Positions 1,664-58,045 of a DNA stretch of 64,000 nucleotides are shown here, one piece after another. Location of the stretch: the NCBI GenBank assembly GCA_040954595.2, contig CM082577.2, positions 4,216,305 through 4,280,304 on the forward strand, given 5' to 3'. The position numbers and the translations under genes were made by a program. Positions within the stretch are counted from its first letter, which is position 1. The number at the start of each line of letters is the position of its first letter. The notes beneath the pieces were generated by a model that was not told the DNA's origin, made no database searches, and worked only from the letters and a program-made list of their open reading frames with translations. This stretch comes from Balanoglossus misakiensis. Its lineage: Eukaryota; Animalia; Hemichordata.

Positions 1664-15164
<13,501 letters not shown>

Positions 15165-16515
15165 GTTCAAAGTTCTTATATAATCTATTGTGACGCTCGT
15201 TCGGGGGGTCACGGCCTTGCGAAAAGGTCGATGCACTGATGCGGACCGCCCTCACCGACCGATTCCGTGACCCAGCCAGTGACCCTATGTAAACCTTTAC
15301 ATACACTGGCATGGCACAACACCCACGATATAGAACAAACACAGCCAAACGCATAGAACCACAGACACATCTGTCTTATGTCTGTAAAACCATGGACGTA
15401 AAAAAGAGGCCGCATTATTCTATTCACATCAACACATTCACTCAACTTGCAAATAAAAACGAGAAAAACAATCACTAGGAAAAAACATTTTATTGAAAAA
15501 ATAATAAAACCCACCAGTGATGAAAATGTATCACAAATTAGACTAATAAAATACATGTTATTTTTTATTGACATGATTTTTTTAAAAAGCCTACTACATG
15601 ACTGAAACAATGGGCTTAATACATATTTATTGTACATTAAATATTAAAATATACTGATGCAATTTTTCAGTATGCACATAATGATTATAATGACAATATT
15701 TAGAATACAAAGTTCATTTTTGTATAGAAAAATACAAGGGCATCATTTTAAAGTACACAAGAAAAAAATGAAACATGCTTCCTGATAAAAAGATGCTATA
15801 AATGTTCTACATTATATTTGCAATATGTTAAAAGAATCTTGCACAAGTACATAAGGGGAGGTTTTCTTGGAAAACAACGACAGATCATATGAAAAAGGAA
15901 TTTCACAACTTGTCAAGAAAAAGACACTATTTAGAAATATGCATATGTAAGATAAAGTGCCCCTCATTCAATTTTGCTACAGATTAAGCACAATCAAGTC
16001 ATAAATGGACTTTTAACTTGCAAAAGGATGAATGTAATATATACGTGAAACCTTGGTCATACTACCACTTGCTTAGGAGTCACAGACCAGGTAACAAACT
16101 GGCTTGTATTAAACTATAAAATAAAATATGTTTCATCATAGTCCCTCCACAGTATGGTTTCTTCCATGGATTGCAACTGGACCATTTTCTGTACGCATGA
16201 AAAATTTTGCCATCCATGATTTCCCTGGAACAACTGGAGTACAATAAAAGACATCGGAACAGCCTCCTCTGAATCCCCCGATAGTTTTCCAACAATTCTA
16301 AAATGAAAAGCAAATAAAGTCAAAGTTTAGCAAGTGATAATAATCCAAAATACTTATATGAAAGCGATATAGACCAACAGACGCACGTGTGCAAATGCAC
16401 GTGAACACACACTCACACACACACCTACAGCATAAACTCATGTGTGCTCATACACAGAGATTAAAAAGGGCAACTTGGATGATTACCTACCTCAGCTGCT
16501 AAAGATGAAGCTTTC

Positions 16516-18290
16516 TCAAAGGATGCCTGAAATAAATAATTTCACAAAGTTATCAGAGTCACACCCGTGGGTATTTATTATCAGTGCATTAACACACATT
16601 GTAGACTAGGATGAGTGTTATTTTCCTTTTCAAAGAACTGAGTATAGATGCCAAAAATGCATGTACAGATTAAAACACTTACAACAGCAACATTTGCCTT
16701 CGTCTCTGGATTGTGTTCTCACTGGCTCTCGGCTTTCCCCATTGTTTGCCTCTTCAATGATGACATCTCTCTGACCCACAGTTGTGCTTGGCTGTGTGTT
16801 TTGAGCTGTTGAGACAATAGTATTTTTTCAGCAACATGTATGCCTGCAAAGCATTGACACATCAGTGCAATTTTCTGCGTTTTCAAATGCACAGCCGAGA
16901 TGGCTGCACCTACCGGTACAGGTAGTCAGTGGTGACAACCATTTTACGAAGTTATAGCTGTCAGTAAGAAGCAATTCAGGTAGTCAGTTGGCATGTGTCT
17001 ATACTGCTAATTTCGAGCCCTGACCAGTGTGTCGGCAGTGATCACTCAAAGCAAAATGCACTGCAACCTACCTGTGTTGGCATCATGAGTGGCTTGATCA
17101 GCAGGTGGTGGAGCTTCCACCACGGCCTCTACATCTCTCGATTGCAAGGGATCTGATTGGCCGTTCCCCTGCCTGGGATTTCCAGGGGGCGGAACTTCTG
17201 AAATTATAGTTCACAAAAATCAAATGCAATTCATCTCACAAAACTGGAAAACAGTTTACCAGTGGAGAGTCAGACACTGTTAAGGTATCCAAGAGTATTT
17301 CCAGTCGCTGAATGAACTCACTACTGAATAGCTTCAGATTTCCAATAAAATTTCCCCCCCCCCCAGATACCCTCAACCCTCCTCCCCCTTCAGAGCTATA
17401 ATACCTTTAATGTCCTGTGCACCCTTGAATTTTTTCCTCAGCTTATTTGCGAGTTCCATATTTTTTCTTTGCTCCAATCCATCCACCAACCTCTCAAGGG
17501 TTGCAGCACCATGACCAGACTGCTGTTTCCATTTCATCAGGAGTTGATATTTGATCTCTTTGGAATTCCCTCTATTACTATCCTCAATGTCCTGAATGTC
17601 AGTTTCCTTGACTTTGAGTTTTCTCACCAGGAATCTACACTCCGGGAGGGTGATTTCGTCAGTTAGATATCCGACTACTTCGTCCATGTCTACCGACTCT
17701 ACTGGTGCAGCTCTGGGATCGGGAGAAGCTATATTTCACATAAAAGAAGGAAAGGTAACATTATTTGAAAACGCTGCCAGTCTAAAATTTCTGAGTGATC
17801 ATAACAAACGGACTTTAAAAACCTAACCTAGCACTGTAGATGCTCCATTCTGCAACTCTGGTTCATCCAAGCTGCGACCTATTCGATCCCAGAAGTGTGG
17901 ATTGCTACGTTTGATGAAAGCAACGACATCCAAATAATTTGGCAGTTTGACATCGTCTGCGTCGTGTATAAGGATCGGGATGATTCTCATCCTGTTTACT
18001 GGATCGTTTTCGCCGAGCAGATTGTTGACGGCGTTAAGTCCGTCAAAATGTAGCTGCTCGTTACAGTTTTGGGGTAATATGAGGAAGGTGACTGCAGAGT
18101 CTCTCACAGCATTTTGTATGTGGTCGTTTCTGTATCCTCCAACAGGGAAGTTCCGATCAGGCAGACAACCCCGTCTGAGTGGAAATCTAGATTTCTCTGC
18201 CTCATTGACGAAATCTTCGGCAAATTTTTCGCTGTCCTTATCTTTAGCATCGTAAAGAACAAAATAGTCGTATTTATACTGGCGAGACAT
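16516..18290 (-). CDS. TIR domain + death domain adaptor-like protein with predicted C-terminal CaaX motif (about 348 aa)
   Basis: Exons 17828-18290 (ATG MSRQ; TIR with box1-like YKYDYFVLY, BB-loop RGCLPDRNFPVG, box3 FWDRI), 17405-17728 (death domain LVRKLKVKETDIQDIE...KYQLLMKWKQQSGHGAATLERLVDGL), 17072-17197, 16683-16805 and 16516-16526 (GC ATC CTT TGA). All introns are phase 1 GT-AG. Spliced C-terminus ...QSRDEGKCCCCIL*. TIR and DD exons are well supported; the last two exons are less certain. Confidence 0.8.
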
Positions 18291-19731
18291 CTTTCGCTGC
18301 TGTCGTCGACTAGATTCCGACGAATTCCAAGAACATGAAATGTACAGGTTGACCTCCGACCCAATGTTTGTTTCCACTTCAATTTCTTCAATGGGCAGCC
18401 ACGCCCACACTCGAGCTGAACGTAAACTGGTCCGAATGTGCTCCCCGATGTACTCGCGTGTTTTGAGGGAATACTGTAAAAATTTGAATGAAAAGTCACA
18501 GTTAATAGCCAGAAGTTTTCAGGTGCATATTGGTAATTATACCAGTACTAGATAGGTTTGTTGCTAGATTTATTTTGTTTGTTAATGAAGTTCCCATGGT
18601 TCTTGACTCTACTTGAAACTATAAAACACAGATAAACACAAATGTGTTGATTGGGATCCAAATGAAGACGACCAAGAACACACACAGTATACATAAAGTG
18701 CAATTATTTATTACATAATTATCTTACAAATCAGCCAAAACATTACCCTAAGAAAATCCGAACAAGTCTTTTACATAATTTACAATTAAAAGAGAAGGAG
18801 CTATGGGAGTACAACTTTGAAGAAATGTTTTGCATCCATAAAAATCCTGTCAATTTCTTAAAAGAATTTATGCAAAATATAGTTAATTTCTCCATCACCG
18901 AAGTTAATGGATGAATATGACTAGACTGCAGACAGGACTATACACAGATGGTCTGATTTTATCTGGGGTGGGTAATTTGATGAATCTTGGAGCATGGGTA
19001 AACATAATGCCAAGTTCTCTGTGGAGTGTGGAGCCAATGTGACACCATCATACAACAAAAAGTTTGTAGGCTTTTATTCCCCGCATCACAAGATACTAAG
19101 GTAATCTCTTCTGGACAGCTCAGGGCTGCACAACAGCAGCAAAATGATGCATTTTTATTCTTGGCTTATCAAATTACATGATTTGGTAAAAATATCTGAA
19201 AAATAGATTCCATTTTTGTGTAGAAATAACATATTCTTCCGTAGAAACAGAATTTGCATTTTATTTCTGATAATTATGTAAAATACTCTGATCTGAATTA
19301 ACTCTTTTGCTATTCATGCTTGCTTTCCACAATTCATTGAGAGATGAGAACGAAAACCCTGTGTTGCATTACATCAATAATTATATTTTGTAAGATCTAC
19401 AGTGAGAGATATGTTGCATGTATTGAAGTTTCACCTTTTCTGACTGACAGTTCACCACAGCGTCATGAGTTATGCGTTATCCACACTGTAGCAAGGTCAA
19501 AACTCAAGGTCACTGTGAATACACAGATTTGCATTTGCACTCTGGGATGTGAAATTTTATTTTGTGCGCATTGGTAGCTTTCCAACTCTCAGTGACTGTC
19601 ACAGACACCAGATGTGGTTTGCCTTTGACATTTTATAGTATATTTACATGCTCCCCAAAGAAAGTAAGCAATGCCCCATGAAGTTTCATTTATTGCAGTC
19701 AGATATTCTAGCTTCTAATGTTTATTTGTTG

Positions 19732-22700
19732 TCATTCGCAAGTTAAGTCCGTTGGAATGAAAGCCTCTGCCAGGACGTCCAGTGTAGATGGCTGTAAAGT
19801 CATTGAGATCTGCTTGAGGTAGTGTAAGAACCTAAAATCAAACAGAAAAAAACACTGATTATAAAATTGTGAGAGACGGTTAATGAACTGTTTTGGTATC
19901 AACATCTGTAATTCAAGTTTTATTTACAAATATTTCTGTAAAACAAAACTAGACTAGACACTGCCAATTCTCTTGGTAGAAAGCACTGAACAAAGGCTGA
20001 AAAAACCTTTTGAATCTAATTTGATTGCAAGCTCATTAAATTACCTTCTCTTTGCATTGGTGACTTCCCTATGTCTCTCTGCTTTGCATATGGTCCTCAT
20101 TGCTGGCAGGTAATTGGTGGTGACTGCCCTGTGGTTGCATTGAACCGACAGAGGAAGTGCCGAGCACACATCGGCATTGCTATCCTTGCACTGTTCGCTT
20201 TGGCTGTAAACGGGGAAGAAAAGATCATTTATGAGAGCTACAAGTTTGGCTGACTTGCTCTGATTACAGATTAAATTTCTTCCAATGAATGAGAAACAGG
20301 AAAATAAACAAACACTGAAAAGAATGAGGAAAAATGGTTCAAAATTTAAAAACTATTAACATAAAAACCACGGTTAACAAACTGATGTATGCAATGTATA
20401 CAAAACTTTTGACAATCTCTACTGACCTTATTTGTTTGTTTGTCCAGACATCAAGTCTCAAGTCATCCTCACGTTTTCCAACGAGTTGCAGAACGTCGTA
20501 AATTTCTTGGAAATCGGACACATTACAGTTTTTGAACTTTGCGGGATCAAAGTTTCCTCTACTGTGACAGTCTCTGACTCTCTGTAGAACCCTGCACTGC
20601 TGCGAGCGGAACTTGTCCGCGCTGGCAACACGCAGGTAACTCTGAATATCTCTAGTGGTCTCATCTGAGCTCCAATCACAGTCCAGGCATTTGGTCAGCT
20701 GATCACTCAGCCCATCTGATTGGGTAGCTGTCCACCAGCCGTGGTCACCATGGCGACCAGCATCATTTTTCGGAAGTCCTAGCAAATCCGAGCTTGAAAG
20801 ATTGTCAAGATGTTCTGACCAGGACTGGAGAGAATCTTGCAAAATTCCAGAATTGTTGTCATCTAGCATTTTCACATCACTTGTTTTATTGTCTGTGGTT
20901 TCCAAGCACGACTGCCTTGTCACAAAGCTGCTCAAGTTACTCCACAACACATCTTTCTTGTGGTCCTTCATTGTCGCTACCATGGCAACTCTTCTCGATC
21001 GACTCCCACTCATGTCCTATGAAGAAATAGATGGAGGAAATATATTTTAAAATGATAAACCATAAATATGGTGGTTAAGTGGTTGAGTGAGCGAGTGAGT
21101 AGGTCATGATTATGTTTGGGAAGCATTGCCAATTGTGTGTGGAAGGGACCCTTTCATAAAAGCAGAGTTCTGAATCAAAATTCATAGACATAAGAATAAA
21201 CTCAACCGTTACCTGTAGATGTTGAAGTAGACCTCCCTTCTTCCAGGCCAGGTTCAACAGACCGAGCGAACTCTCCATTGATAAGCAATCCACCGTGGGG
21301 AGCTCAACAGACTCTGTCTCCATGGAAACACCACTGGCTTCTTCCTGGGATGACACGATGTCTTGGCTATCTGTCGTTTCTTGGCTACCCATGGCTTCCG
21401 CCTCACTCTCCTGGCCCAGTTTCTTATCTCTCTGCTCTGCTATACCCTTGCTCTGGTAGAATTCCGATATCACGATTGTCTTGATCTCCAGATCGATCAG
21501 TTTGTTGAGAAATTGCGTTTCAAAGTCCTCGTCTTCATTTTCAAGGTCAACAACATCGGTGGTTTCCAATGCGTTCGAATCCTTGGGTTCAGTAACATCA
21601 GGTACAGATTCTGAACTCCGACCTTCATCATATGACACTGCAGTCTGTTTTTGTTTACACTCTACATCTTTAGATTTTGTCACAAAACAACTGTTGACAT
21701 CCACCAGTGGTTCTAATTCAAAGAATTTTCGGTCTGCACCAGATTCAGTCCAGAATTGTAAGCTGTGAAGACACCGTCTGAAGTCACAGTTGTAAAGTTT
21801 CACCAGTCTTTCAATGTCGCCGGCGTCGGTTCTGATGTCTTCAGCCAAACATACCAGTTGTAGATTCGTGACCACCATTGGCTGTTTTTCGATAACAATC
21901 ATAATAATAAATAAAACACCATTTATAAATTCAACCTGTCTTTGTAAATTGTATGAAATCAAAAGCATCAGAAATTAAAGTTAAAACACTTACCACTGGG
22001 AGGAGTTTGAGTGTGTGTTCGAAGAAGTAGCTGCCTTCAAATGGAGCAATGAAAGTTTGGTCTGTTGGTGAAAGCAAATAAGGACAATAAACAATAAAAC
22101 GGACAAGAGGTTGCAATTGTGATAAAAAATAGCCACTTGAGATCAGAATGACGCGAACATTTTTTCTTCACAAAACATTTGAAGACAACTGAACAATAAT
22201 AAGGGTATCTGCCTGCATCAACTGTCTGTAAAGCTCTTCCTGTGTTGGAAGTCAGACAAGCAATGTCATATTCATCAAAGTAATACAAATAGTAAGGAGG
22301 ATTCTTACCTGAGGTTGTCATGACAATGGGTCTCTTTGTTGTACTCATCAAAGTATTAATGGCTGCCCAGAAACCTTTGTCTTCTTCAAATATCAAGTCC
22401 ACCTGGTAGGAAAATAAACAAAAGAATACATGAAGAACCTTGTTGAGGGCCCAATGCTATAATAGACAGCCAGTGTTTACCCCATGTGGACAAAAATCAT
22501 CACGTACAGACAAGCAGAGAGTGTAGAAGCTCACCTCTTCAAATAGAATAAGCGATGTGCTTGCTATTTTCATCCTTAAGTTGCTGCTGGGTTGAGTGGT
22601 TTCCAGCTTGGCTTCAATTTTCTCTGCAATTTGAAAAGAAATGATTGTTAATGTGGAATTGAAAATAATAATATGGAATCAGAACAGAAAGTCCATGTCA

Positions 22701-25700
22701 ATATTGTTTCAGTTACGGAGCTGCTACAGGGATGTACACACAGGGCATGACAGCCAAGCAGGGCTACACACTCTAGCACAAGAAACAAATATCGGGTTCA
22801 GGGTTCATACACCTAGAGCAATTCAAAATTCCAGGAGTTTCCAGGAGATTTCCAGTAATTTTCCAGGAGTTTTTGTGGTAAAAATGCCATTTTCCAGGGT
22901 GTTTTACGCAACAAAACTGTGCAACTTTACTATTACTGTTACATTCATATGCACTTGTAATTCTAGTTTAACAAATCATTTAAAGACTTTTGACTGTGAT
23001 ACTAGTACAAATTTCAATGACCTCCCCATGAAGACCTAGTAAAACACTTTTCACCCGGAGATCACCTGGGTTCCTACATCATTTAGCATATTTGGCTAAA
23101 ATTTAAGTGACTCCCCCCCCCCCCCCTGGATTTTGCCGCCACCCCTCGGCCGTAAAAACTGAACAGTCCCTAAAGCAATGATTTCTGTCTTGATAAAATC
23201 GACAAATTACTGATGGAAATTACTGCTGAAAAAACCCACAAAAAAACGCCTGCCTTTTTTGCTTCTTTTTGACATCACTAATTGCCCTTGAACATCGATC
23301 TTAGGGTGTCTGCCGCGGCCGTCTGTACAAGTATTCTGCAGGCGCGCGGACACATGGCATGACCTCTAACAAAAGTTGCTACATCTTTTGTCAAGTTTTA
23401 GATATTTTGTTGCGACCGGAACGCTGAGCTGCGTTAGTTGTTGCAATTTGTGCATTACTACGTCAATGATACTATTTATAGGACGCATGTCTAAAGATAA
23501 CTGGTGCGCTGAGTGAAATGGGCAACGCGTACTGTTTCACGATCCGGTGAAATGCGATCGTGACTCGCGGTTTTCCAGGAGTTTCAAGGAGAAATTTTGA
23601 ATTTCCAGGAGATTTCAGGAGTTTCCAGGAGGGGTTTCAAATTCCAGGAGATTCCAGGAGTTTCCAGGAGCGTACGAACCCTGGGGTTTTAAACTTACTT
23701 TCATGTTCATTCATCTTTTTCTTGGGTTTCTTCCCTCCTTTATCAACTCCGCCGTCTGGTTTCTTCAAGAAAGAAGCAAACGCCGAGTGCACTTGAGGTT
23801 TCTTGGTTTCCTTGGCAGGGAGTGACACCCCCGGGGACAGGAACTTGGCGAGCGTTCCACTTCCTTGTCCGTGTGACACTTGATGGGATTGCGTGGCCTC
23901 CTTCAGTTCTGAGAGGATCTGTTTTCCACTTCTCTTGGAGGATGCATTGACTTCGAACACCTGTGGATGTGTATAGAAATATCAATAAATTGTGACTATA
24001 TATAGAAGAAAACTGTAAGTCGAGCCATGGTATTCTAAGTTCTCAAAAAGCATATGACTTTATTATTGAGTTCAACATTATATCGCCCCCACCTTGAATC
24101 CAAGTTCCTGGGCACAGGCATATACTGTGGCCGTCTTGCCGACTCCAGTTGGCCCCCGAATCAGGACAGTATTGCAAATGGATTCATCCTCATCTTCATC
24201 AAGGTAATCACTGTCATTTTCATCACTTACATCAAAATCACTATCATCATCATACCACCATTCTGAAAAAATAAAAATGTAAAGTTTCTCAGTGTAACAA
24301 TGATATACTTGACAGATTTGACAAGAAAACCTGAAACATATATCAATATCTGTTTTGTTGTCATTGTGAACCTGTATCATTGTCGCATTTGAATATTTAC
24401 TTATGTAAACCTTTCAGCTATTAAGTTATTTACCATCAGATTTGTCATCAGACTTGTTCGATTTCTTGGCTTCTTTCTTCAACTGTTCCTTCAGTTTCTT
24501 CTTCTCCCGATCACTTCTTCTCTTCCACTCTGACAGCCAGGAGTGGAATTTCTTGACGGTCTCTTTGTTTCCGATGATCTCCGATGACTGGGTAGGTTGG
24601 TACTTGTCTGTCCAAAGTATGTCCTTGGATTTGTCTAATGTGGAATTAATTGTGTATATTATATCATATGACTCATTGAGAATATATTGAGGTATTGTCA
24701 CTATAACGTCAAAAAATAAAAAGACCAATAAAATTTAAATTCTTCTTAAATAAATGACAAAAAACCATACCACTTTCTGTCTTGACTTCCTTTCCTTCTT
24801 TCATCTCCTCACAATCCTTTTCTTGACTATTTTCTTTATCTGCCGCTGTTTCTTCACTAGTCTTACTCTTCAGTCTACGGCTGCTTCGTCGCACACTTTT
24901 CTCTTCTCCTTGCGAGTTCCTCCGAGAATTTTTTGAGCGATTACTGCCATCACTGGCATCAGACTTTCTCTTTCTACTTCTGCCACTTTCTTCTTTACCT
25001 TTCATGTCTTCACCGTTTTGTTTCCCATCCTCTATACACACAGAAGTAAATAATTTTTGACATAAGGCTTCACCTAAAAAATCCATAACTGTATCTTTTG
25101 GCTAATTTTTATGTTTTTGTGAATCAATTGCAGTTTCACCAATGGATGCACCGAAATCCTGTCTACAAAGCAAGGCTGGTAAACAGAATGTATAATGTGA
25201 CAAGCAATTAGTTTAGCGCTCCCATGCAGCCATCATGAATTTGAACTCAAAGTGAGGCCAATGGGGAAGATCGACCAATCACATCAAGGGGATTTCCCCA
25301 TTGGCCTCGCTTTGAGTTCAAATTCAAGATGGCTGCATGATGGTGCTGGACTTACGAAAAGAGTGTATACAGACCGAGTACACTATATTAGATGACATTT
25401 CATAATCTTTTATGTAGCAAACCCATGGGGCAGAAGTGCAAGGCAAGTAAATGATGACTTACCATTCCCCTGCAGTTTGTTGTCAACAGATGTTCCTCTC
25501 CTTTTCGCCAAATACCTCTTGAACCATCGATTGACAGGGAAGTTCGGATTGGCTCTACTAATCTCTTGTAATAAACACTTCCTTACTGAGTAAGAGAACT
25601 CAGACCTCTTGGAAACCTGTGGAGGACAAAAGATATTAATTGCTGAATTTCAATAATGGACATCTTTGTTCCCAAAAATGAAAATGATAAATGACCATCT

Positions 25701-28700
25701 TGATTACCCAATGTGCAAAGATTCATTAAATTAACCTCCCCATTAAAAAAAAAACCAACAGCCAACTACTTACTGTATTCAGAGCTGAGTGGAAGCCAAA
25801 CTTCTCCAATGCTAGTGTTAACGTTCCAAGCTTCAAATCTGTCGGTGTTGTGGCATCCATTTTGGTTTCATGGTCTTTTCTTAAATTTAACGCCACAGCT
25901 GGCCCAGAAAGACACCAGAAACTACAACTGGATGGTTCTTCAATGCAAAAAAAAAAATGAAAAAGATTATGATCAATTCGAGGAATAATTCTTGAATTTG
26001 AAGAGTAAATGGGAAATTCACAGATTCAAAGTAAGGACTTCCAGGGTTTTCCCCAGTAGTTTTACAACGATTATTTGAGGTCATAAATAACATTTCCTGC
26101 AGGGAGAGGATGCAGATCATAGCTGACCTTTCTGCTGGACATGGCTGACAGTCGGCCATGGTGCAGGGTCCAGTTTCTTGGCCGACACTTTCTTAACGCT
26201 CTCGGCGGCCATCTTGTTGAGCAGCCTGTCTCTCCTTGCAATGAAGCCATCGTCATCTTGAGAGCTCTCCCTACTGCTCTCATCGATGATACTGATTTGT
26301 GGTGGTAGTATGGGCTTTGCTGCCGTGGTGCTGGCCTTAACCGATTCAGCTGTTGTCTTCTTACCAAAGTTGGTGAATATGGAGGCAAGCTTCACAGGAC
26401 CTGTGGAATAATTGCATTTTGGTTAACTAGCCAAGGATGGTAAACTATTAAAATATAACCGAGGGTCTTCTGTCATTTTGTAATAGCAAAAAGTGGGCAA
26501 GTCATTTTACCTCGTATTATTTTCCAAATACAAAACGAATGAAATAATACTTTACTGAAGTTAAATTTAATCCTAAAAATTGTGCAATCAAAATGGTCAG
26601 AAAGAAAGCCAAGAATGTACCTTTTGGGGTATCTTCTTTGTCACTGGCTGTTTTACATTTGCTAGCATTACTTGACCACGCTGCTTGATGTCGACCACTC
26701 AGATTTTGTTTTACTGGTTTCTTTCCCAGCACAGCATTGATACTCTGTGCTCCTTTCTTCTGTGCAGGTCTTGCATTCTCAGGCGAGTCACCAATCTCAA
26801 TGACCTCTGTCACCGCTTGCTGCTGCTTTTTCGATCTACGGGGAGTGTTCCTTGAAAGTCTTTTGCGACTGGATGGCGTTGGTGCCCTCTTCGCTTTTGT
26901 CCGGATTATTTTCAGCTGGGATCCCTTACGTTGTGTCTTTGCACTGGTTTTCTTCAGCTGGCTGGTTCTTGCCTTCTGCAGCAGTTCTTGCGCTTTTGAG
27001 GCCTTCACATTGTTCTGTTTGCAAATAAAAAATCACATCAGACTAGAGAAACACACCAAAGGCAAGCTCCATGCCATGCATTTATTAAACCTCATAAGTT
27101 TCAAAGTGTTTTTCCTTGATTTTTGGAACCGGCTTAGAGCACAAGTTTTTTAATGGACAAATTTACAACACGGATTCTTATAGGACTTTTCAAGGACTAA
27201 GTCATCTAAACTGAACATTGCAAGACCTGCTAGGACTGTTTAGAATAACTAGAATGAAAATTTAATAAAAAAGACTTTTTAATAGAACAGGTTTAGGATT
27301 CGAAAAGTGTTATCACTGTTCTACATTCTAATCCCAGACATTGTTAGGAAGGGAATTGCCGTCAAGCAAAGTGACTCATGTGCAGCCTTACCTTTACAGC
27401 TTTAGTGGCCAGTCTTCTGCTTTTACTCTCACTCTCCGGGGATTCATCAGATAAGCTTTTGTTGAGTCTGGTTAGTCGTAGTCTGATTGGACTGTTTTTG
27501 CCAGGACCCGTGTCTACCACTGTAGACTTGTAAAGCTTCTTTTTCGCTTGACGCTTCAATCTGGCGTTAACTGTTTGGGGTGTTTGGCATTTCTCAAAAT
27601 CAGAGTCCGACTCAATACTCCCAGAAGCCTTCTTTCGCTTTTTTGTTTTGTTGAATATCTTCTGCAGGGCCATTTTCTTCCTCGGTGTGTTGCCGCGAGC
27701 CGAGGCCTTTCGCTTCCTCGAACTTCCAACATCCTGGACAGATTCCACTTCACTCTCAGATGTCGTTCGTTTTCTTCTCCTTCCTCTTCTGGGAGTTTCC
27801 TGCTTTTCATCTTCTGACTGTTGACTTCCTCCAGTTAATTTGTCAATTGTTCTAGCTGCAGCCTTTCTCGTTGACCTTCTCTGTGGGGTTTCCAGGTCGT
27901 CTGTTTCTGTGGGTCGTGTATTTCTCTCTCTGCTCTCACCTTCATTCTTTCCAGAAGTTGCCTCATTGTCTCCCTCATTTTTCCCTTCAATGCCAGACGT
28001 ACCAATTTTTCTCCCCCGAGATTTCCTCTCCTTGCTTTCGCTGCTCTGCTGGTTAGATTCCTCTTTACTTTTATCGCAGCTCTGCTTGGTACTACTTGTA
28101 GGTTTGTGCTTTGTGAAGAAACTGTGGTATTTCTGTGGGCCCTGAGAATTCACACCTTTTTTATCGCTGCCTCTTCCACCTTCTTCAGTGACTGTCAAAT
28201 CAACTTCAGTCAAATCAACCACAACGTTTGACTTCCTTCGCCAGTGCCTACCCTCTGGAGAAGAATTAGTCGATCCAGACTTGCTTGTTCTGTCACTAGG
28301 TGCAGGCGAGGGTGGCCCGTGTATCATAACTTCAGTTGTGATGGTCTTTCCACAGGGAATAGGTTCCACTTTCGGATTACTATCTTCTTTCTCATCCCGT
28401 GGTTTGTCCTCACTGCATTCAGTATCAGGTGATTTTTTGACCTGCTCAATTCTCTCCTGAGCTTCACTCTTGTCGTCGGTCACACCTTCAGCATTTTCTG
28501 TCACCGATGTTTCAAGTTCAAGAAACTGTTCATAACTAATCACTTCCAGATCTTCTACACACTCCTCGGCTGCAGCTTCAGTGTCCACTTTAGCTCCATC
28601 CTCGTCCACCCCTACAGACGATTCTATTTCCGTCTTTAAGTTCACTCCAGCCAGATTCTCTTCTTCAGGAAGGGCAGGTTTTACAGAATCAGCTATTACG

Positions 28701-29565
28701 GAAGTTTCTGATGCTTGTACCGGTTTCTGTTTCTCGGTCTCTTTAGACCTGACCTTATTAGTATCTCCAACCTCTGCGTTCACCTTGGGTTTCCCTCTCT
28801 TCCTTTTCAACTTTTTTGACGCCGGTGTAACGTCTTCAAAGTCGTCTGCCAAAGATTCCTGACTCTGGTCAATTTTTCTCTTCTTCTGGTACGCAGGAGT
28901 CAGTACATTGCTGCTCTTGGCCGACAAAGCTGTCACAGCGGGGTCACCTTCACATCCGACTGGAGACTTTCTGTGTTGGAAACTCCGCGGCTGTTCAAAG
29001 TCACTTTCACTCTCACAAATCGGCTCAATTATTTTCACCTCTTTACTCCCGCTGTATTCTAATGTACGTTTGGGCGGTCTGGTCTTCGGGGTGACTCTCT
29101 GTTTGGCAAAAGCCTTGATGTCTTCCTTGTCAGACTTCTGAAATTCATCTGTTTTCACAGATGGAGAAGCACTGTTATTTACCACCCCGACTGTTCCCTG
29201 AGGCATTTGCTGGATCTTGGCACCTTCGCTGGCAGGACTTTTCTCCAATTTCTTGAAATACCCAAAGAGGTCCTTTGGCCTCAGTTCTTGTTTCTGTGCT
29301 GGTGGCTTGAAGAAGTTTGTAATGGGAACAGTTTTCTGACATGTTTTGGCAAAAGGAGATTTCTGTGGAGTCTTCTTAGTCTGAAATTAAATAAAGCAAA
29401 TACATGTATATTCAGGGGGTGAGATAGTTGTAATGATTGTAGCGGGTGCTGCTAGGTGACTGATACAGTCTCAACAATTTATTCTCTGGCATCATTGCAA
29501 CTGTTCTTATAGTTTACCTGTAGATGGTCCACAGCCTCCTTGTTGACTGCCATTACACCAATCAT
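19732..29565 (-). CDS. ATAD5: ATPase family AAA domain-containing protein 5 (ELG1; PCNA unloader large subunit), 17 coding exons, 1894 aa
   Basis: Exons: 29518-29565 (MIGVMAV..., like vertebrate MVGVLAM), 27392-29380, 26621-27014, 26128-26400, 25774-25937, 25463-25616, 24771-25031, 24434-24634, 24093-24262, 23699-23960, 22535-22623, 22309-22402, 21994-22061, 21213-21881, 20427-21016, 20045-20203, 19732-19831. Total 5685 nt, in frame. Motifs: LWTDKYQP, Walker A GPTGVGKT, ACAQELGFKVFEVNASSKRSG, LKEATQSHQV, LILFEEVD, TKRPIVMT, CDFRRCLHSLQFW, C-terminal YLPAMRTICKAE...RRFLHYL. Confidence 0.93.
22799..23683. mobile_element. 885-bp non-autonomous DNA transposon (hAT5-like) in an ATAD5 intron
   Basis: TIRs CAGGGTTCATACAC / CAGGGTTCGTACGC (12 of 14 match), 5-bp target-site duplication GGGTT (22794-22798 and 23684-23688), and subterminal arrays of TTTCCAGGAG at both ends. 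No transposase ORF. Confidence 0.85.
25214..25368. mobile_element. Palindromic MITE, copy 2 (ATAD5 intron)
   Basis: Same ATGAATTTGAACTCAAAG(T/C)GAGGCCAATGGGGAA arms as 10325-10488, with the core in the opposite orientation. Confidence 0.78.
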
Positions 29566-30360: not shown

Positions 30361-30995
30361 ATTCCTAGCCTTCAACTGTATTGAAATGTCAACAAGTGTA
30401 AGTTACTTGTAAAACTGGCTTAGACCTTCATTTGTTGGTAGGAAGGCGTGGATCCCAGACTATTGCATTACATGATGTACATCACAACTCTCCATTCATA
30501 ATAAGTTTGGCGCCACTGACCTTAGTATAACATGTGCTTTGTAACACGCATACTTTCTAAAAACATTTGAGTGAATTTGTGTCAGCCCTATATTTGAACA
30601 TTGTGTAATGTGGAAAAAGTTTGTTTCATAAATTAACCAGTGGGTTGCTTGTCAGTTGAACGTCATTTATTCATACTTCATGGTTTCACATTATCAGACA
30701 ATAGTAATTCAGACCATAATTTTGACAACTGGCATATATGAAAACGAACCTAATGTGGTTGCACAGAGAAGCAGTGATGTAGAATTTGAATTGTCCGGGT
30801 GGTGCAGTAAAAAGTACCCGGTAATTACATAAAACGTGTTTCATCAGGAAACTTGACATATGATAATTAAACAACAGTACAACAAATAGCAACTAAGGTG
30901 AGAGTGGATTATTGAATGACTCCTAACAAGTATTTTTTATTAATGTTCAGGTTTATTCTATGCTATGGAAGTTCGAGTGTTCACATGATCACACC

Positions 30996-32625
30996 ATGTC
31001 TAGGTACGACACGGAAAAGTTCCTCGTCCCACCGGACGTGGAACTGGTCTGCTGCATTTGCCAGGGGGTTCTGGACACGCCGGTGGAAACGCCCTGTCGC
31101 CACGTCTTCTGCAGGAGTTGCATCACCACCTGGCTGAGCAGCAACAGCACCTGTCCTACTTGCCGGCGGCGGTTCACGGGCCGCACCCAACTGCAGCCGG
31201 TTCTGCCGATCGTCATGAACATGATCAACAAAATGCTGATGAAGTGTGACTACCGCGAGTACGGCTGCATGAAGGCCGTGCAGCTGGAGCACCATGCCCA
31301 CCACGTGAGACTAGACTGTGAGTTTGAACCGGTCCAGTGCGCGCACAAAGGCTGCAAAGAGACGGTGCTGAAGCGGGACAGAGACGAACATGAGCAGAAG
31401 TGTCTGTTTGCTCCCTTTACTTGTCAGAAGGGCTGCGGTTTTGTCATCACCAAACAGGAGGCTGAAATACACAATTGCATTAAAGCTCTTAAAGATAAAA
31501 TTAATGGTTGGTACCTTCTTGAATTCTAAAATGTCTCGGATTCTAAATCAACCCCTTCCCTCCTGGGTATGGTACAGTGCCAAGTCATTTAAACTAAAAT
31601 ACGTATGGCCACTGGACATATTTTGACCGAATTGCATGTCTTTTGTTTTTTCTTTTCCATATTTATCAGAGTTAAAAGAAGAAAACGACAGTTTGAAGGC
31701 AGTCGTGGGCATGATCGACAAGAAAAAACTGCAAGAGGTAATGAATTCTGCTGAAAATGAATCTGCTGCTTCGAATTGCCCCTATTGTAACGACAATTCT
31801 GCTGATAATGTACGAGACGACAATGCGGTAGAGGCTGCGCAGGCGTCGAACAGCGGCAGTGCGTACGAGGTGTCGGACTCCGAGAGCGAGGACCGCAGGA
31901 GCATTATTGTTAATGTTGAAGACGATCAGGAAGACGTTGGTGCCCGTGGTGGTCACGCAAACGACAGCAACAACGCAAACAATCGCGCTGAAGCGGCCAC
32001 TTCATGGGATGAGGCTTCGGATTCTCATGACAACGACTCCAACTCGGCATCGGAGAGTGATCAGTCAGAAATGCTCGTCTTCCTTTCCAGCGATGAAGAA
32101 CAAGACGCCCTGGAGGAGAACGTTGCAGCGGGGGATGGTGGCAACGCGGGTGCGCCGGGCAGCGGCGGCGATGTTGACAATCGGGGGCCAAATGCGGACG
32201 GGGAGTATAACTCGGAATCCGACGCATCATGGGAGGTCGGATCTCGGGACCGGTCGACCGACGTGACCATCAGTGGGGAGTTGTCAGAAGACGAGCGGTT
32301 GGAGGAGGGAGAGGTTCCCATTGTGCGATACACGGACGTATTGAATGCCTACCGGTCGAGCGAGACGGACAACAGCTGGACGCCGGGGCAGGAGACACCG
32401 AGTGAAGATGAGGAGAGGTCTCGCAGACGTCGTCGACCCCGCAGTGACTCGGAAAACAGCGAATCACATCGGCGCAGAAAGCGGCGGAGACGCCGTGTGT
32501 CTTCGTCGAGCAGCGGGACTAACAACTCAAGCGATAGCACCAGCAGTGAGAGTTGTGCTGATAGTGACAGTGTCAGTGAGACGGGAAGTGATTCTGATAG
32601 TAGCAGCGATTCGTCAGACTACTGA
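30996..32625 (+). CDS. RNF151/RNF41-like RING (C3HC4) + TRAF/SIAH-type zinc-finger E3 ubiquitin ligase with acidic/Ser-rich tail (about 488 aa)
   Basis: Exons 30996-31506 (MSRYDTEKF..., RING CCICQGVL...PCRHVFCRSCITTWL...CPTCR, zinc fingers CDYREYGC...H...CEFEPVQCAHKGC...HEQKC...CQKGC...HNCI) and 31670-32625 (short coiled coil, then D/E/S-rich region with RRRKRRRRR). Phase-1 GT-AG intron. An upstream acceptor at 30950 implies a 5' UTR exon. An in-frame ATG at 30960 is an alternative start. Confidence 0.82.
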
Positions 32626-56504: not shown

Positions 56505-56682
56505 GTAAGGGGAGATGCGCCGCCAGTTCGGCCGTTTCTGTGGACAGCAGATCTGCTGTGCAAAATTTCCATGTTTTCTATGGGAATGAATTGTAGCTCA
56601 ACGGGCCAGCCAACTCACCACAGCTGTCAGTCAAACTGAACCCATCCCCACCCAGTCAATGATTCATTAATTGTTTTCAATT

Positions 56683-56730
56683 GATTCATTCATCCATCCA
56701 TTCTTTCATTCATTCATTCATTCATTCATT
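56683..56730. repeat. (CATT)n tetranucleotide repeat just upstream of the sulfotransferase acceptor
   Basis: gattcattcatccatccattctttcattcattcattcattcattcatt. Confidence 0.9.
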
Positions 56731-56736
56731 ACTCAG

Positions 56737-58045
56737 GGTGGACCCACACGAAACACACCAAGGAGTGAATGTCTTACAAGTAGCAAGAATGGCGCTGACA
56801 GACTATACGATAAGGATATCGAAATGTAAACACCTATATTCAGCCACAGGGATTTGCTTTGTAATTGGAATTTTAGTGCTTTACACGCAGCCAATCCAAT
56901 TCATCAACATTTCCATCCTGGGCAGCTACAGGAAAGCACCCGATCTCAATTGGCTTCGAAAGAACTTGAATAAACCCACGGAAGGTTCGAACAACCAGCA
57001 CGATGTTGTCAGAGTCCCCGAGTATGGCAGTTCGGACGATGATTCGGGCGAAGGGTGTTTGCAAGCATTGGACTGGTATCAGAAAAAGAGGAAGATCATC
57101 CAGAAGTGGTCGTTCTGCAGGGAGGAGTTTGACCTCCTGCGCAAATGTATGAAGTCGTCCGAAATGGGCGTGCGACCGCTCCCGAACTTCTATCTCAGGG
57201 ATGCCAACACCACCATCGTCGATCCTCTGTACGCAGAAGCCACAGTTGGGTTTGTGCACCTGCCGAAAAGTGGGGGGACGTCGGTGGAGGAATTTCTCAG
57301 CCCGATAGTTGGCACATGGGGAATTTTTTTTGGTACCCAGATGGGCGTTGCGCACTGCAACGAATTCACCTATGCAGTACAGACAGTTCAAAACTCGAAG
57401 AGTCGGTGGCTCTTCTACTCGAAACGAGTGTACGGACTCCATGAATTTGCGCCAAAACACAGACCTTTCATGTATATCACTTGGTTAAGGAAACCGGTCG
57501 ATCGTGTCGTATCAGCCTATCACTACATCAAGAAGACCAAACCAAACTACCACCACATGTATGAGAAGTACATTGTTCAGTCCAAGAATTTGACAGAATG
57601 TTTGCAGAAGATAGGAGGGAACCACGTGCCCGGGCTCGATAATTACTTCGTTCGGTTGCTGCAGTTCGGCGACCATCCGGACGTGGACGGAACGTACGAA
57701 GACTGTTGCGGCGCCATCTTGGCCAGTGACCCGACGGCAGCTCCCGCAATCGGGGAAGAACACTACCTGGTCGCCAGGGAGAATCTCAGGAAGAATATGG
57801 CGTTCGTCGGCATCATGGAGGAATTCAAGCTCTCTCAGGATATGCTGGGATATATCCTGGGCAAACCACAGCTGACTTCCGTCGTCGAAGTCAACACCAA
57901 CCCGCACAAAACGGTTCTCACCGACTTCGAGCAGAGGGAGATAGAGCGCATGAATTACTGGGATATGAAACTGTACGACGACGCCAAGGAGATCTTTGAA
58001 CGCCAAAAAGAAAGGTACCGCAAGATTACTAAACATGTAGTCTGA
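56737..58045 (+). CDS. Golgi type II membrane carbohydrate sulfotransferase (Sulfotransfer_2-type, heparan sulfate 6-O-sulfotransferase-like), main coding exon
   Basis: Acceptor actcag|G at 56736/56737 and in-exon ATG at 56789 (MALTD). TM segment ATGICFVIGILVLY, 5'-PSB motif FVHLPKSGGTS, 3'-PB motif WLRKPVDRVVSAYHY. ARENLRKNMAFVGIME and NYWDMKLYDDAKEIF resemble the HS6ST C-terminal region. Stop TGA ends at 58045. Confidence 0.85.

Follow-up and report, generated by a model that had tools for sequence, protein, structure and literature searches.

The stretch of Balanoglossus misakiensis DNA analysed here, referred to as the window, spans 64,000 nucleotides and carries a reverse-strand gene whose predicted product of 348 amino acids starts with a TIR domain followed by a death domain (DD), and then continues through a low-complexity linker to a terminal KCCCCIL-stop (Table 1). 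Directly upstream on the same strand lies an ATAD5/Elg1-like gene, the last exon of which apparently ends ~1.4 kb upstream of the start codon of the TIR-DD gene. An ABCC (MRP1/2-like) transporter gene follows downstream, with a CpG-rich stretch beside it near 15001-15500. No second member of the TIR family described below was found within the 64-kb window.

Table 1. Predicted features of the window, with positions counted from its first letter.
Feature	Position	Strand	Content or basis
Exon 1	17828-18290	-	Start codon and TIR domain (about aa 5-141)
Exon 2	17405-17728	-	DD (about aa 169-255)
Exon 3	17072-17197	-	Pro/Gln-rich linker
Exon 4	16683-16805	-	Low-complexity linker, K342, C343, C344, C345 and first base of C346; donor GTAAGT
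Exon 5 (micro-exon, 36 nt)	16491-16526	-	Rest of C346, I347, L348, and stop ending at 16516
Predicted 3' UTR	25 nt after the stop, to the GTAGGT donor at 16490	-	Within exon 5
Predicted 3' UTR intron	16298-16490	-	Acceptor before 16297; sequence prediction
ATAD5/Elg1-like gene	about 19732-29386	-	PDB match, E 4e-7
ABCC (MRP1/2-like) transporter gene	about 3248-14418	-	E 2e-17
RING finger and TRAF-type zinc finger gene	30927-32622	+	Divergent from the ATAD5-like gene
460-codon open frame	56663-58042	+	Sulfotransfer_2 match

Gene structure and the C-terminal tail

The four introns of the TIR-DD gene (99, 207, 266 and 156 nt) are all of the GT-AG type and all in phase 1. Joining the coding exons, the last of which runs from 16526 to 16516, gives 1047 nt, or 348 codons and a stop. 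An earlier note on this DNA had arrived at five phase-1 exons, a protein of about 348 residues and a CCCCIL-stop terminus with its last cysteine codon split by an intron, and this model is confirmed, the codon of C346 being divided T/GC across 16683/16526. The CpG o/e ratio stands at 0.93-1.14 over 17751-18750, compared with 0.1-0.5 across most of the gene body and flanking sequence, which suggests that the 5' end is near the start codon, and the Ptychodera flava ortholog begins at the same methionine as the B. misakiensis protein.

A candidate upstream exon was observed at 18543-18618 on the reverse strand, with an AG acceptor, a GTATAA donor and a good-context ATG at 18597. This ATG would open a Met-Gly-x-x-x-Thr sequence, which we take to resemble a myristoylation signal. 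A myristoylation anchor from this exon was nevertheless set aside: the exon is out of frame with its best acceptor, at 18473, where it yields a 46-aa upstream open reading frame; it comes into frame with weaker acceptors alone (4 of 13 AGs, e.g. 18415); and it has no counterpart in the orthologs, both of which begin at the TIR domain.

The C-terminus of the predicted protein reads K342-C-C-C-C-I-L348. Its CaaX acceptor would be C345, at position -4, whose codon (16686-16684) lies entirely in exon 4, and the pairing of a cysteine at -4 with a terminal leucine (C345-C-I-L348) is that of geranylgeranyltransferase-I substrates. The 16526 acceptor is not singled out by the genome alone, since two of the eight YAG acceptors between 16640 and 16290 yield a CaaX-like end. 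An AG at 16637 would give an alternative CaaX-like end, CCFL. The P. flava ortholog (XP_070580260.1/261.1, a RefSeq predicted model of 354 aa) also ends in KCCCCIL, with identities to the window protein of 87/142 (TIR region), 36/87 (DD), 17/86 or 20% (linker) and 7/7 (tail). One short patch of the exon 3 linker is also common to P. flava (tblastn 45% over 29 aa, E 0.021). Because the last seven residues are identical behind a diverged linker, the CCCCIL tail is regarded as real and the 16526 acceptor is preferred. That the tail is instead an artefact of exon joining, with the real transcript ending otherwise, is extremely improbable: the ortholog records are RefSeq predicted models and six of the eight nearby YAG acceptors lead to non-CaaX ends, but against this stand the identical KCCCCIL of P. 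flava, the CSIL ends of two G. talaboti models, and an intron 4 whose donor is the consensus GTAAGT and whose acceptor is the pyrimidine-rich TTTCAG.

The Glandiceps talaboti TIR-DD ortholog (XP_077980527.1, a RefSeq predicted model) ends in KCHCSIL. A CaaX-like end occurs in three of five TIR-family clusters and in none of 35 non-family matches (Fisher p 0.001, for sequences that are kin and thus non-independent; isoform P0041 and cluster members P0042-44 are left out of the count). The sequence CCIL is the 20-carbon (geranylgeranyl) CaaX box of RALA and PDE6B (PMC7674641), which share these last four residues with the window protein but are GTPases or enzymes with neither TIR nor DD. Brain Cdc42, likewise a GTPase rather than a TIR or DD protein, possesses a CCaX box on which prenyl and palmitate groups can occupy adjacent cysteines without further trimming, as described in PMC13236570. 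Placement of innate-immune proteins at membranes by C-terminal prenylation is known from OAS1 and ZAP-L, in an isoform-specific manner for ZAP (PMC8787094), although these are RNA sensors or effectors and the window protein is adaptor-like. By analogy with this CaaX chemistry, the tail is very probably a dually lipidated (prenyl/palmitoyl) membrane anchor. Skipping of exon 5, with 16683 joined to 16297, would end the protein at C345 as GKCCC-stop, and is a possible candidate for an anchor switch; a stop this near the last junction would escape nonsense-mediated decay.

The TIR and death domains

Exon 1 matches Pfam TIR_2 with E 5e-4 to 1e-5, under the 28-bit cut-off. Its AlphaFold model, built on an alignment that included the TLR-type TIR P0031, has a pLDDT of 78.6 and clearly adopts the flavodoxin-like TIR fold. 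Compared with solved TIRs, the model places TIR-STING, MyD88, IL-18Rb and IL-1RAcP in a tie at Z 16.2-15.2, with SARM1 at 13.5, all at 15-25% identity; the value for TIR-STING is Z 16.2 (rmsd 2.6 over 133 aa) and that for MyD88 is Z 15.8. The first Foldseek match is the MyD88 TIR (TM 0.76, 15-17% identity). Alignment A3 also contained the classic TLR-type TIR P0031, which biased its profile towards TLRs, and the profile was rerun without it on the six family members, giving 28.8 bits for TLR2, 26.1 for MyD88 and 25.6 for TIR-STING. A single-sequence AlphaFold model of the P. flava ortholog was too poor to use (pLDDT 40.7).

The BB loop of the window TIR is R46-N-F-P-V-G51. The canonical motif of this loop, Box 2, is RDxxPG (PMC7075850), from which both the window protein (RNFPVG) and the P. 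flava ortholog (RDFPIG) depart and to which that of G. talaboti (RDFHPG) conforms. The change of the BB-loop proline to valine here and to isoleucine in P. flava could mean weaker TLR binding. At the alphaC column, where TLR2 has glutamate, the window protein has Asp83; aspartate is found in 3/3 DD-bearing members of the family and glutamate in 3/3 DD-less clusters. This is presumably the catalytic column of TIR NADases, though glutamate there means little alone because TLR2 also has it.

The DD encoded by exon 2 matches Pfam Death (PF00531) with E 2.3e-11, at 44.1 bits vs a cut-off of 22.6. RIPK1 and Fas rank first among its 33 PDB matches, Fas and TNFR1 first among the 33 of the P. flava DD, and FADD first among the 24 of the G. 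talaboti XP_077980527.1 DD, while a DD profile that includes eight generic DD matches ranks FADD, RIPK1 and Fas at the top of the best 60 of 64. DDs of MyD88, IRAK, Pelle and Tube are absent from the 33, 33 and 24 matches and from the best 60 of 64, in a comparison run without an invertebrate MyD88 DD as control. The PDB contains DD chains of all four. The DDs of MyD88 and IRAK are divergent and that control is lacking, so a generic DD may account for the Fas/FADD ranking; even so, the result lowers the likelihood of a Myddosome role. The RHIM core, of pattern [VI]Q[VILC]G, is absent from the window protein and five relatives, and no TRAF6/TRAF2 motif is common to the orthologs, between which the matches to TRAF-binding motifs differ. 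Since neither a RHIM core nor a common TRAF motif is present, the DD is the sole recognisable output.

These results bear out in part what the earlier note had read from the exons. A TIR domain in exon 1 and a DD in exon 2 are supported by the structural match to TIRs, despite the sub-threshold TIR_2 score, and by a Death score above cut-off. The CaaX/palmitoylation tail is upheld as a sequence signal by its CCIL box and the comparison with P. flava, and a terminal CaaX is kept in both of the TIR-DD orthologs found. The note's proposal of an adaptor anchored at the membrane is still the favoured reading, as a hypothesis. The label of an inverted MyD88-like adaptor fares poorly, as the DD ranks with those of RIPK1, Fas, TNFR1 and FADD and the nearest TIRs are hemichordate TIR-only proteins.

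Relatives in acorn worms

A search of 1.84 billion representatives with the P. flava ortholog returned 40 matches at E<=0.001, 11 of them named. Seven of the 40 align through the TIR domain, and two contain both TIR and Death, judged by the best five Pfam families per protein: P. flava XP_070580260.1/261.1 (P0001) and G. talaboti XP_077980527.1 (P0002). The TIR-then-DD order is the same in both, and the latter has a 250-aa linker. MyD88 is not among the 11 named matches, and no non-hemichordate TIR of this family, from amphioxus for example, is among the 40. Word-index homolog searches recovered the P. flava ortholog alone, and nothing with the DD exon or longer proteins.

Three more hemichordate clusters, 32-35% identical to the window TIR, represent kin that lack a DD. 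One of these, G. talaboti XP_077980523.1/525.1 (P0008), has a 190-aa low-complexity linker after its TIR and ends in CCPKCSIL; this paralog with the same kind of tail, absent from the earlier note, is a candidate for a pure prenylated sorting adaptor or a decoy. The others, P. flava XP_070580255/256 and Saccoglossus XP_077868976, are without a CaaX and have in common a YYD..SLR tail, which follows a diverged linker; the alphaC glutamate is kept. This tail is possibly a tyrosine-based motif for sorting or phosphorylation, or else a PDZ-type end. Adjacent accession numbers, together with contigs of equal length, suggest that the paralogs are neighbours in both P. flava and G. talaboti.

An eight-row TIR tree sets the six family members apart from two TLR-type outgroups (100/99) and joins the DD-less CaaX paralog to the YYD forms (88/90); monophyly of the CaaX-bearing members could not be rejected (p-AU 0.098). 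The CaaX may thus predate the DD fusion. All named members of the TIR family are enteropneusts, and the family is apparently confined to acorn worms, its absence elsewhere being weak evidence. The nearest DDs outside the family, at 40-42% to the P. flava ortholog, belong to DD-NB-ARC and DD-SAM-NHL proteins (G. talaboti XP_077985144.1, P0009; P0011), which are candidates for DD donors or homotypic partners. A TNFR with a DD (P0026) also occurs among the representative matches.

The combination of TIR and DD looks like an independent fusion, because the DD resembles the Fas/FADD/RIPK1 class and the nearest TIR kin are hemichordate TIR-only proteins rather than MyD88. Domain order in itself is unsurprising: 20 of 28 amphioxus TIR domain combinations are specific and novel ones are common (PMC2575513). 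The new element of the TIR-DD architecture is the conserved terminal CaaX. Neither a prenylated TIR adaptor nor a paper on this gene was found in the full-text literature searched, outside which lie most subscription journals; Gerdol 2017, Tassia 2017, Huang 2008 and Peng 2015 could list the architecture.

Possible roles at the membrane

Among established TIR adaptors, TIRAP/MAL is anchored through PIP2 binding, and both it and TRAM have an N-terminal anchor and no DD, whereas the window protein has a DD and a predicted C-terminal prenyl/palmitoyl tail. TRAM/TICAM2, a membrane-held TIR adaptor that needs N-myristoylation (PMC5492501), provides the precedent for a lipid anchor. MyD88 is cytoplasmic and likewise combines one TIR with one DD. 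In arthropods it possesses a membrane-targeting C-terminal localisation domain (PMC7075850), to which the predicted C-terminal anchor here bears a likeness, and the mammalian protein is palmitoylated at internal Cys113/274 (PMC11772949), in contrast to the terminal CaaX predicted here. TRIF/TICAM1 and amphioxus TICAM take TIR input to RIP-kinase-type signalling, as is proposed for the window protein; bbtTICAM binds RIP through its RHIM (PMC6043800), a motif that the DD would replace in a protein devoid of the RHIM core. According to the same source, non-chordates have no reported TRIF homolog.

The proposed reading, in which we place middling confidence, is that the TIR-DD protein serves as a non-enzymatic bridge, anchored by prenyl and palmitoyl groups, between TLR-type TIRs and FADD/RIPK1-type partners, with caspase-8/NF-kB activation as its positive output. 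From known CaaX chemistry, C345 would be geranylgeranylated and C343, C344 and/or C346 S-acylated, creating a stable membrane anchor. The linker of ~90 aa (100-250 aa in the orthologs) would then allow the TIR-DD head to reach receptor tails, where the TIR may co-assemble as a scaffold with a TLR- or IL-1R-type TIR. Given their class, the clustered DDs would seed an assembly of the FADD/RIPK1 type that signals to caspase-8 and/or NF-kB. The output would resemble that of TRIF while needing no RHIM, and a single chain would unite the signalling role with the sorting role of TRAM or TIRAP. Because the DD-less paralog keeps its CaaX, the anchor would serve the TIR with or without a DD.

Sequence does not reveal whether this output activates or inhibits, and it is here that the reading meets a competitor that is unlikely though worth serious weight. 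The protein could be a membrane-anchored negative regulator, its TIR capping TLR/MyD88 assemblies or its DD sequestering FADD, RIPK1 or IRAK-type partners. Amphioxus TIRA and TIRC and the invertebrate ecTIR-DC proteins (compared by family names alone) are also lineage-restricted cytoplasmic TIR proteins, and TIRC has several TIRs and a DD. TIRA and TIRC regulate TLR signalling, inhibiting that of TICAM and MyD88 (PMC6043800), and many invertebrate TIR proteins are still unclassified (PMC8662601). To this inhibitory precedent are added the atypical BB loops of the window and P. flava proteins and TIR-only paralogs, one with a CaaX, that appear decoy-like. Arguing against inhibition, the BB-loop proline is kept in G. 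talaboti and the DD is intact and conserved at 36/87 positions with P. flava, whereas amphioxus MyD88 and CIKS become weak or inhibitory through loss of the DD (PMC11087794). Signalling might also run in reverse, the DD docking on a Fas/TNFR-type receptor at the membrane and the TIR recruiting MyD88 or a TIR-only paralog as the output step. This arrangement would suit a DD that resembles those of death receptors as well as their adaptors, that is nearer to the membrane anchor than the TIR, and that has a potential partner in the DD-bearing TNFR noted above. It is improbable nonetheless, as no precedent was found in the literature searched and the DD-less CaaX paralog implies that an anchored TIR works without DD input.

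The remaining alternatives turn on the TIR itself. A membrane-bound NADase that resembles SARM1 or the TIR-STING of oyster and is activated when the DDs cluster would be consistent with the position of TIR-STING as the top or near-top structural match and with the alphaC glutamate retained in TIR-only paralogs, and an E-to-D change in AbTir reduces but does not abolish activity (bioRxiv 10.1101/2022.05.07.491051). The catalytic glutamate is, however, called crucial in PMC13732033, and its place is taken by aspartate in all three DD-bearing members; the non-enzymatic TIRs of MyD88 and the IL-1R family tie for the top structural rank, and the glutamate of the paralogs carries little weight when TLR2 has it too. 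Enzymatic activity is therefore given a small probability. Smaller still is that of a rearranged MyD88 paralog recruiting IRAK4 in a Myddosome, despite a MyD88 TIR as the first Foldseek match and within 3 bits of the best profile match, and despite MyD88-named clusters as feature neighbours in the ESM Atlas (0.88-0.89, the lead threshold being 0.9). The order of domains is reversed, MyD88 being DD-TIR and the window protein TIR-DD, identity to the MyD88 TIR is 15-17%, and no MyD88 or IRAK DD is among the matches listed in the four PDB comparisons; the representative search, with no MyD88 among its 11 named matches and TIR plus Death in two of 40, also argues against such descent.

A broader form of the activating-bridge reading is offered tentatively, as a possibility and not an expectation. 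Acorn worms may have invented a prenylated TIR adaptor, the first of its kind, when a TIR with a CaaX/palmitoyl anchor acquired a FADD/RIPK1-type DD. The protein would wire TLRs at the membrane directly to caspase-8 and NF-kB and, as a single chain lacking a RHIM, perform the work of both TRAM and TRIF. It would belong to a modular tandem family of TIR-DD-CaaX, TIR-CaaX and TIR with a Tyr-Tyr-Asp tail, and skipping of the micro-exon could switch the lipid anchor.

The location of a TIR adaptor determines which signal a TLR sends. The known anchors of such adaptors include myristate, phosphoinositide binding and internal palmitate, to which a conserved CaaX would add prenylation. The reach of the finding is limited to acorn worms, where alone the family was found, but its paralogs constitute a natural series, with and without a DD, with and without a CaaX and with Asp or Glu in alphaC, through which the idea can be put to a direct test. 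A TIR followed by a Fas/FADD/RIPK1-like DD would connect TLRs to apoptosis in a deuterostome lineage without a reported TRIF, and such a route bears on the origin of MyD88-independent signalling.
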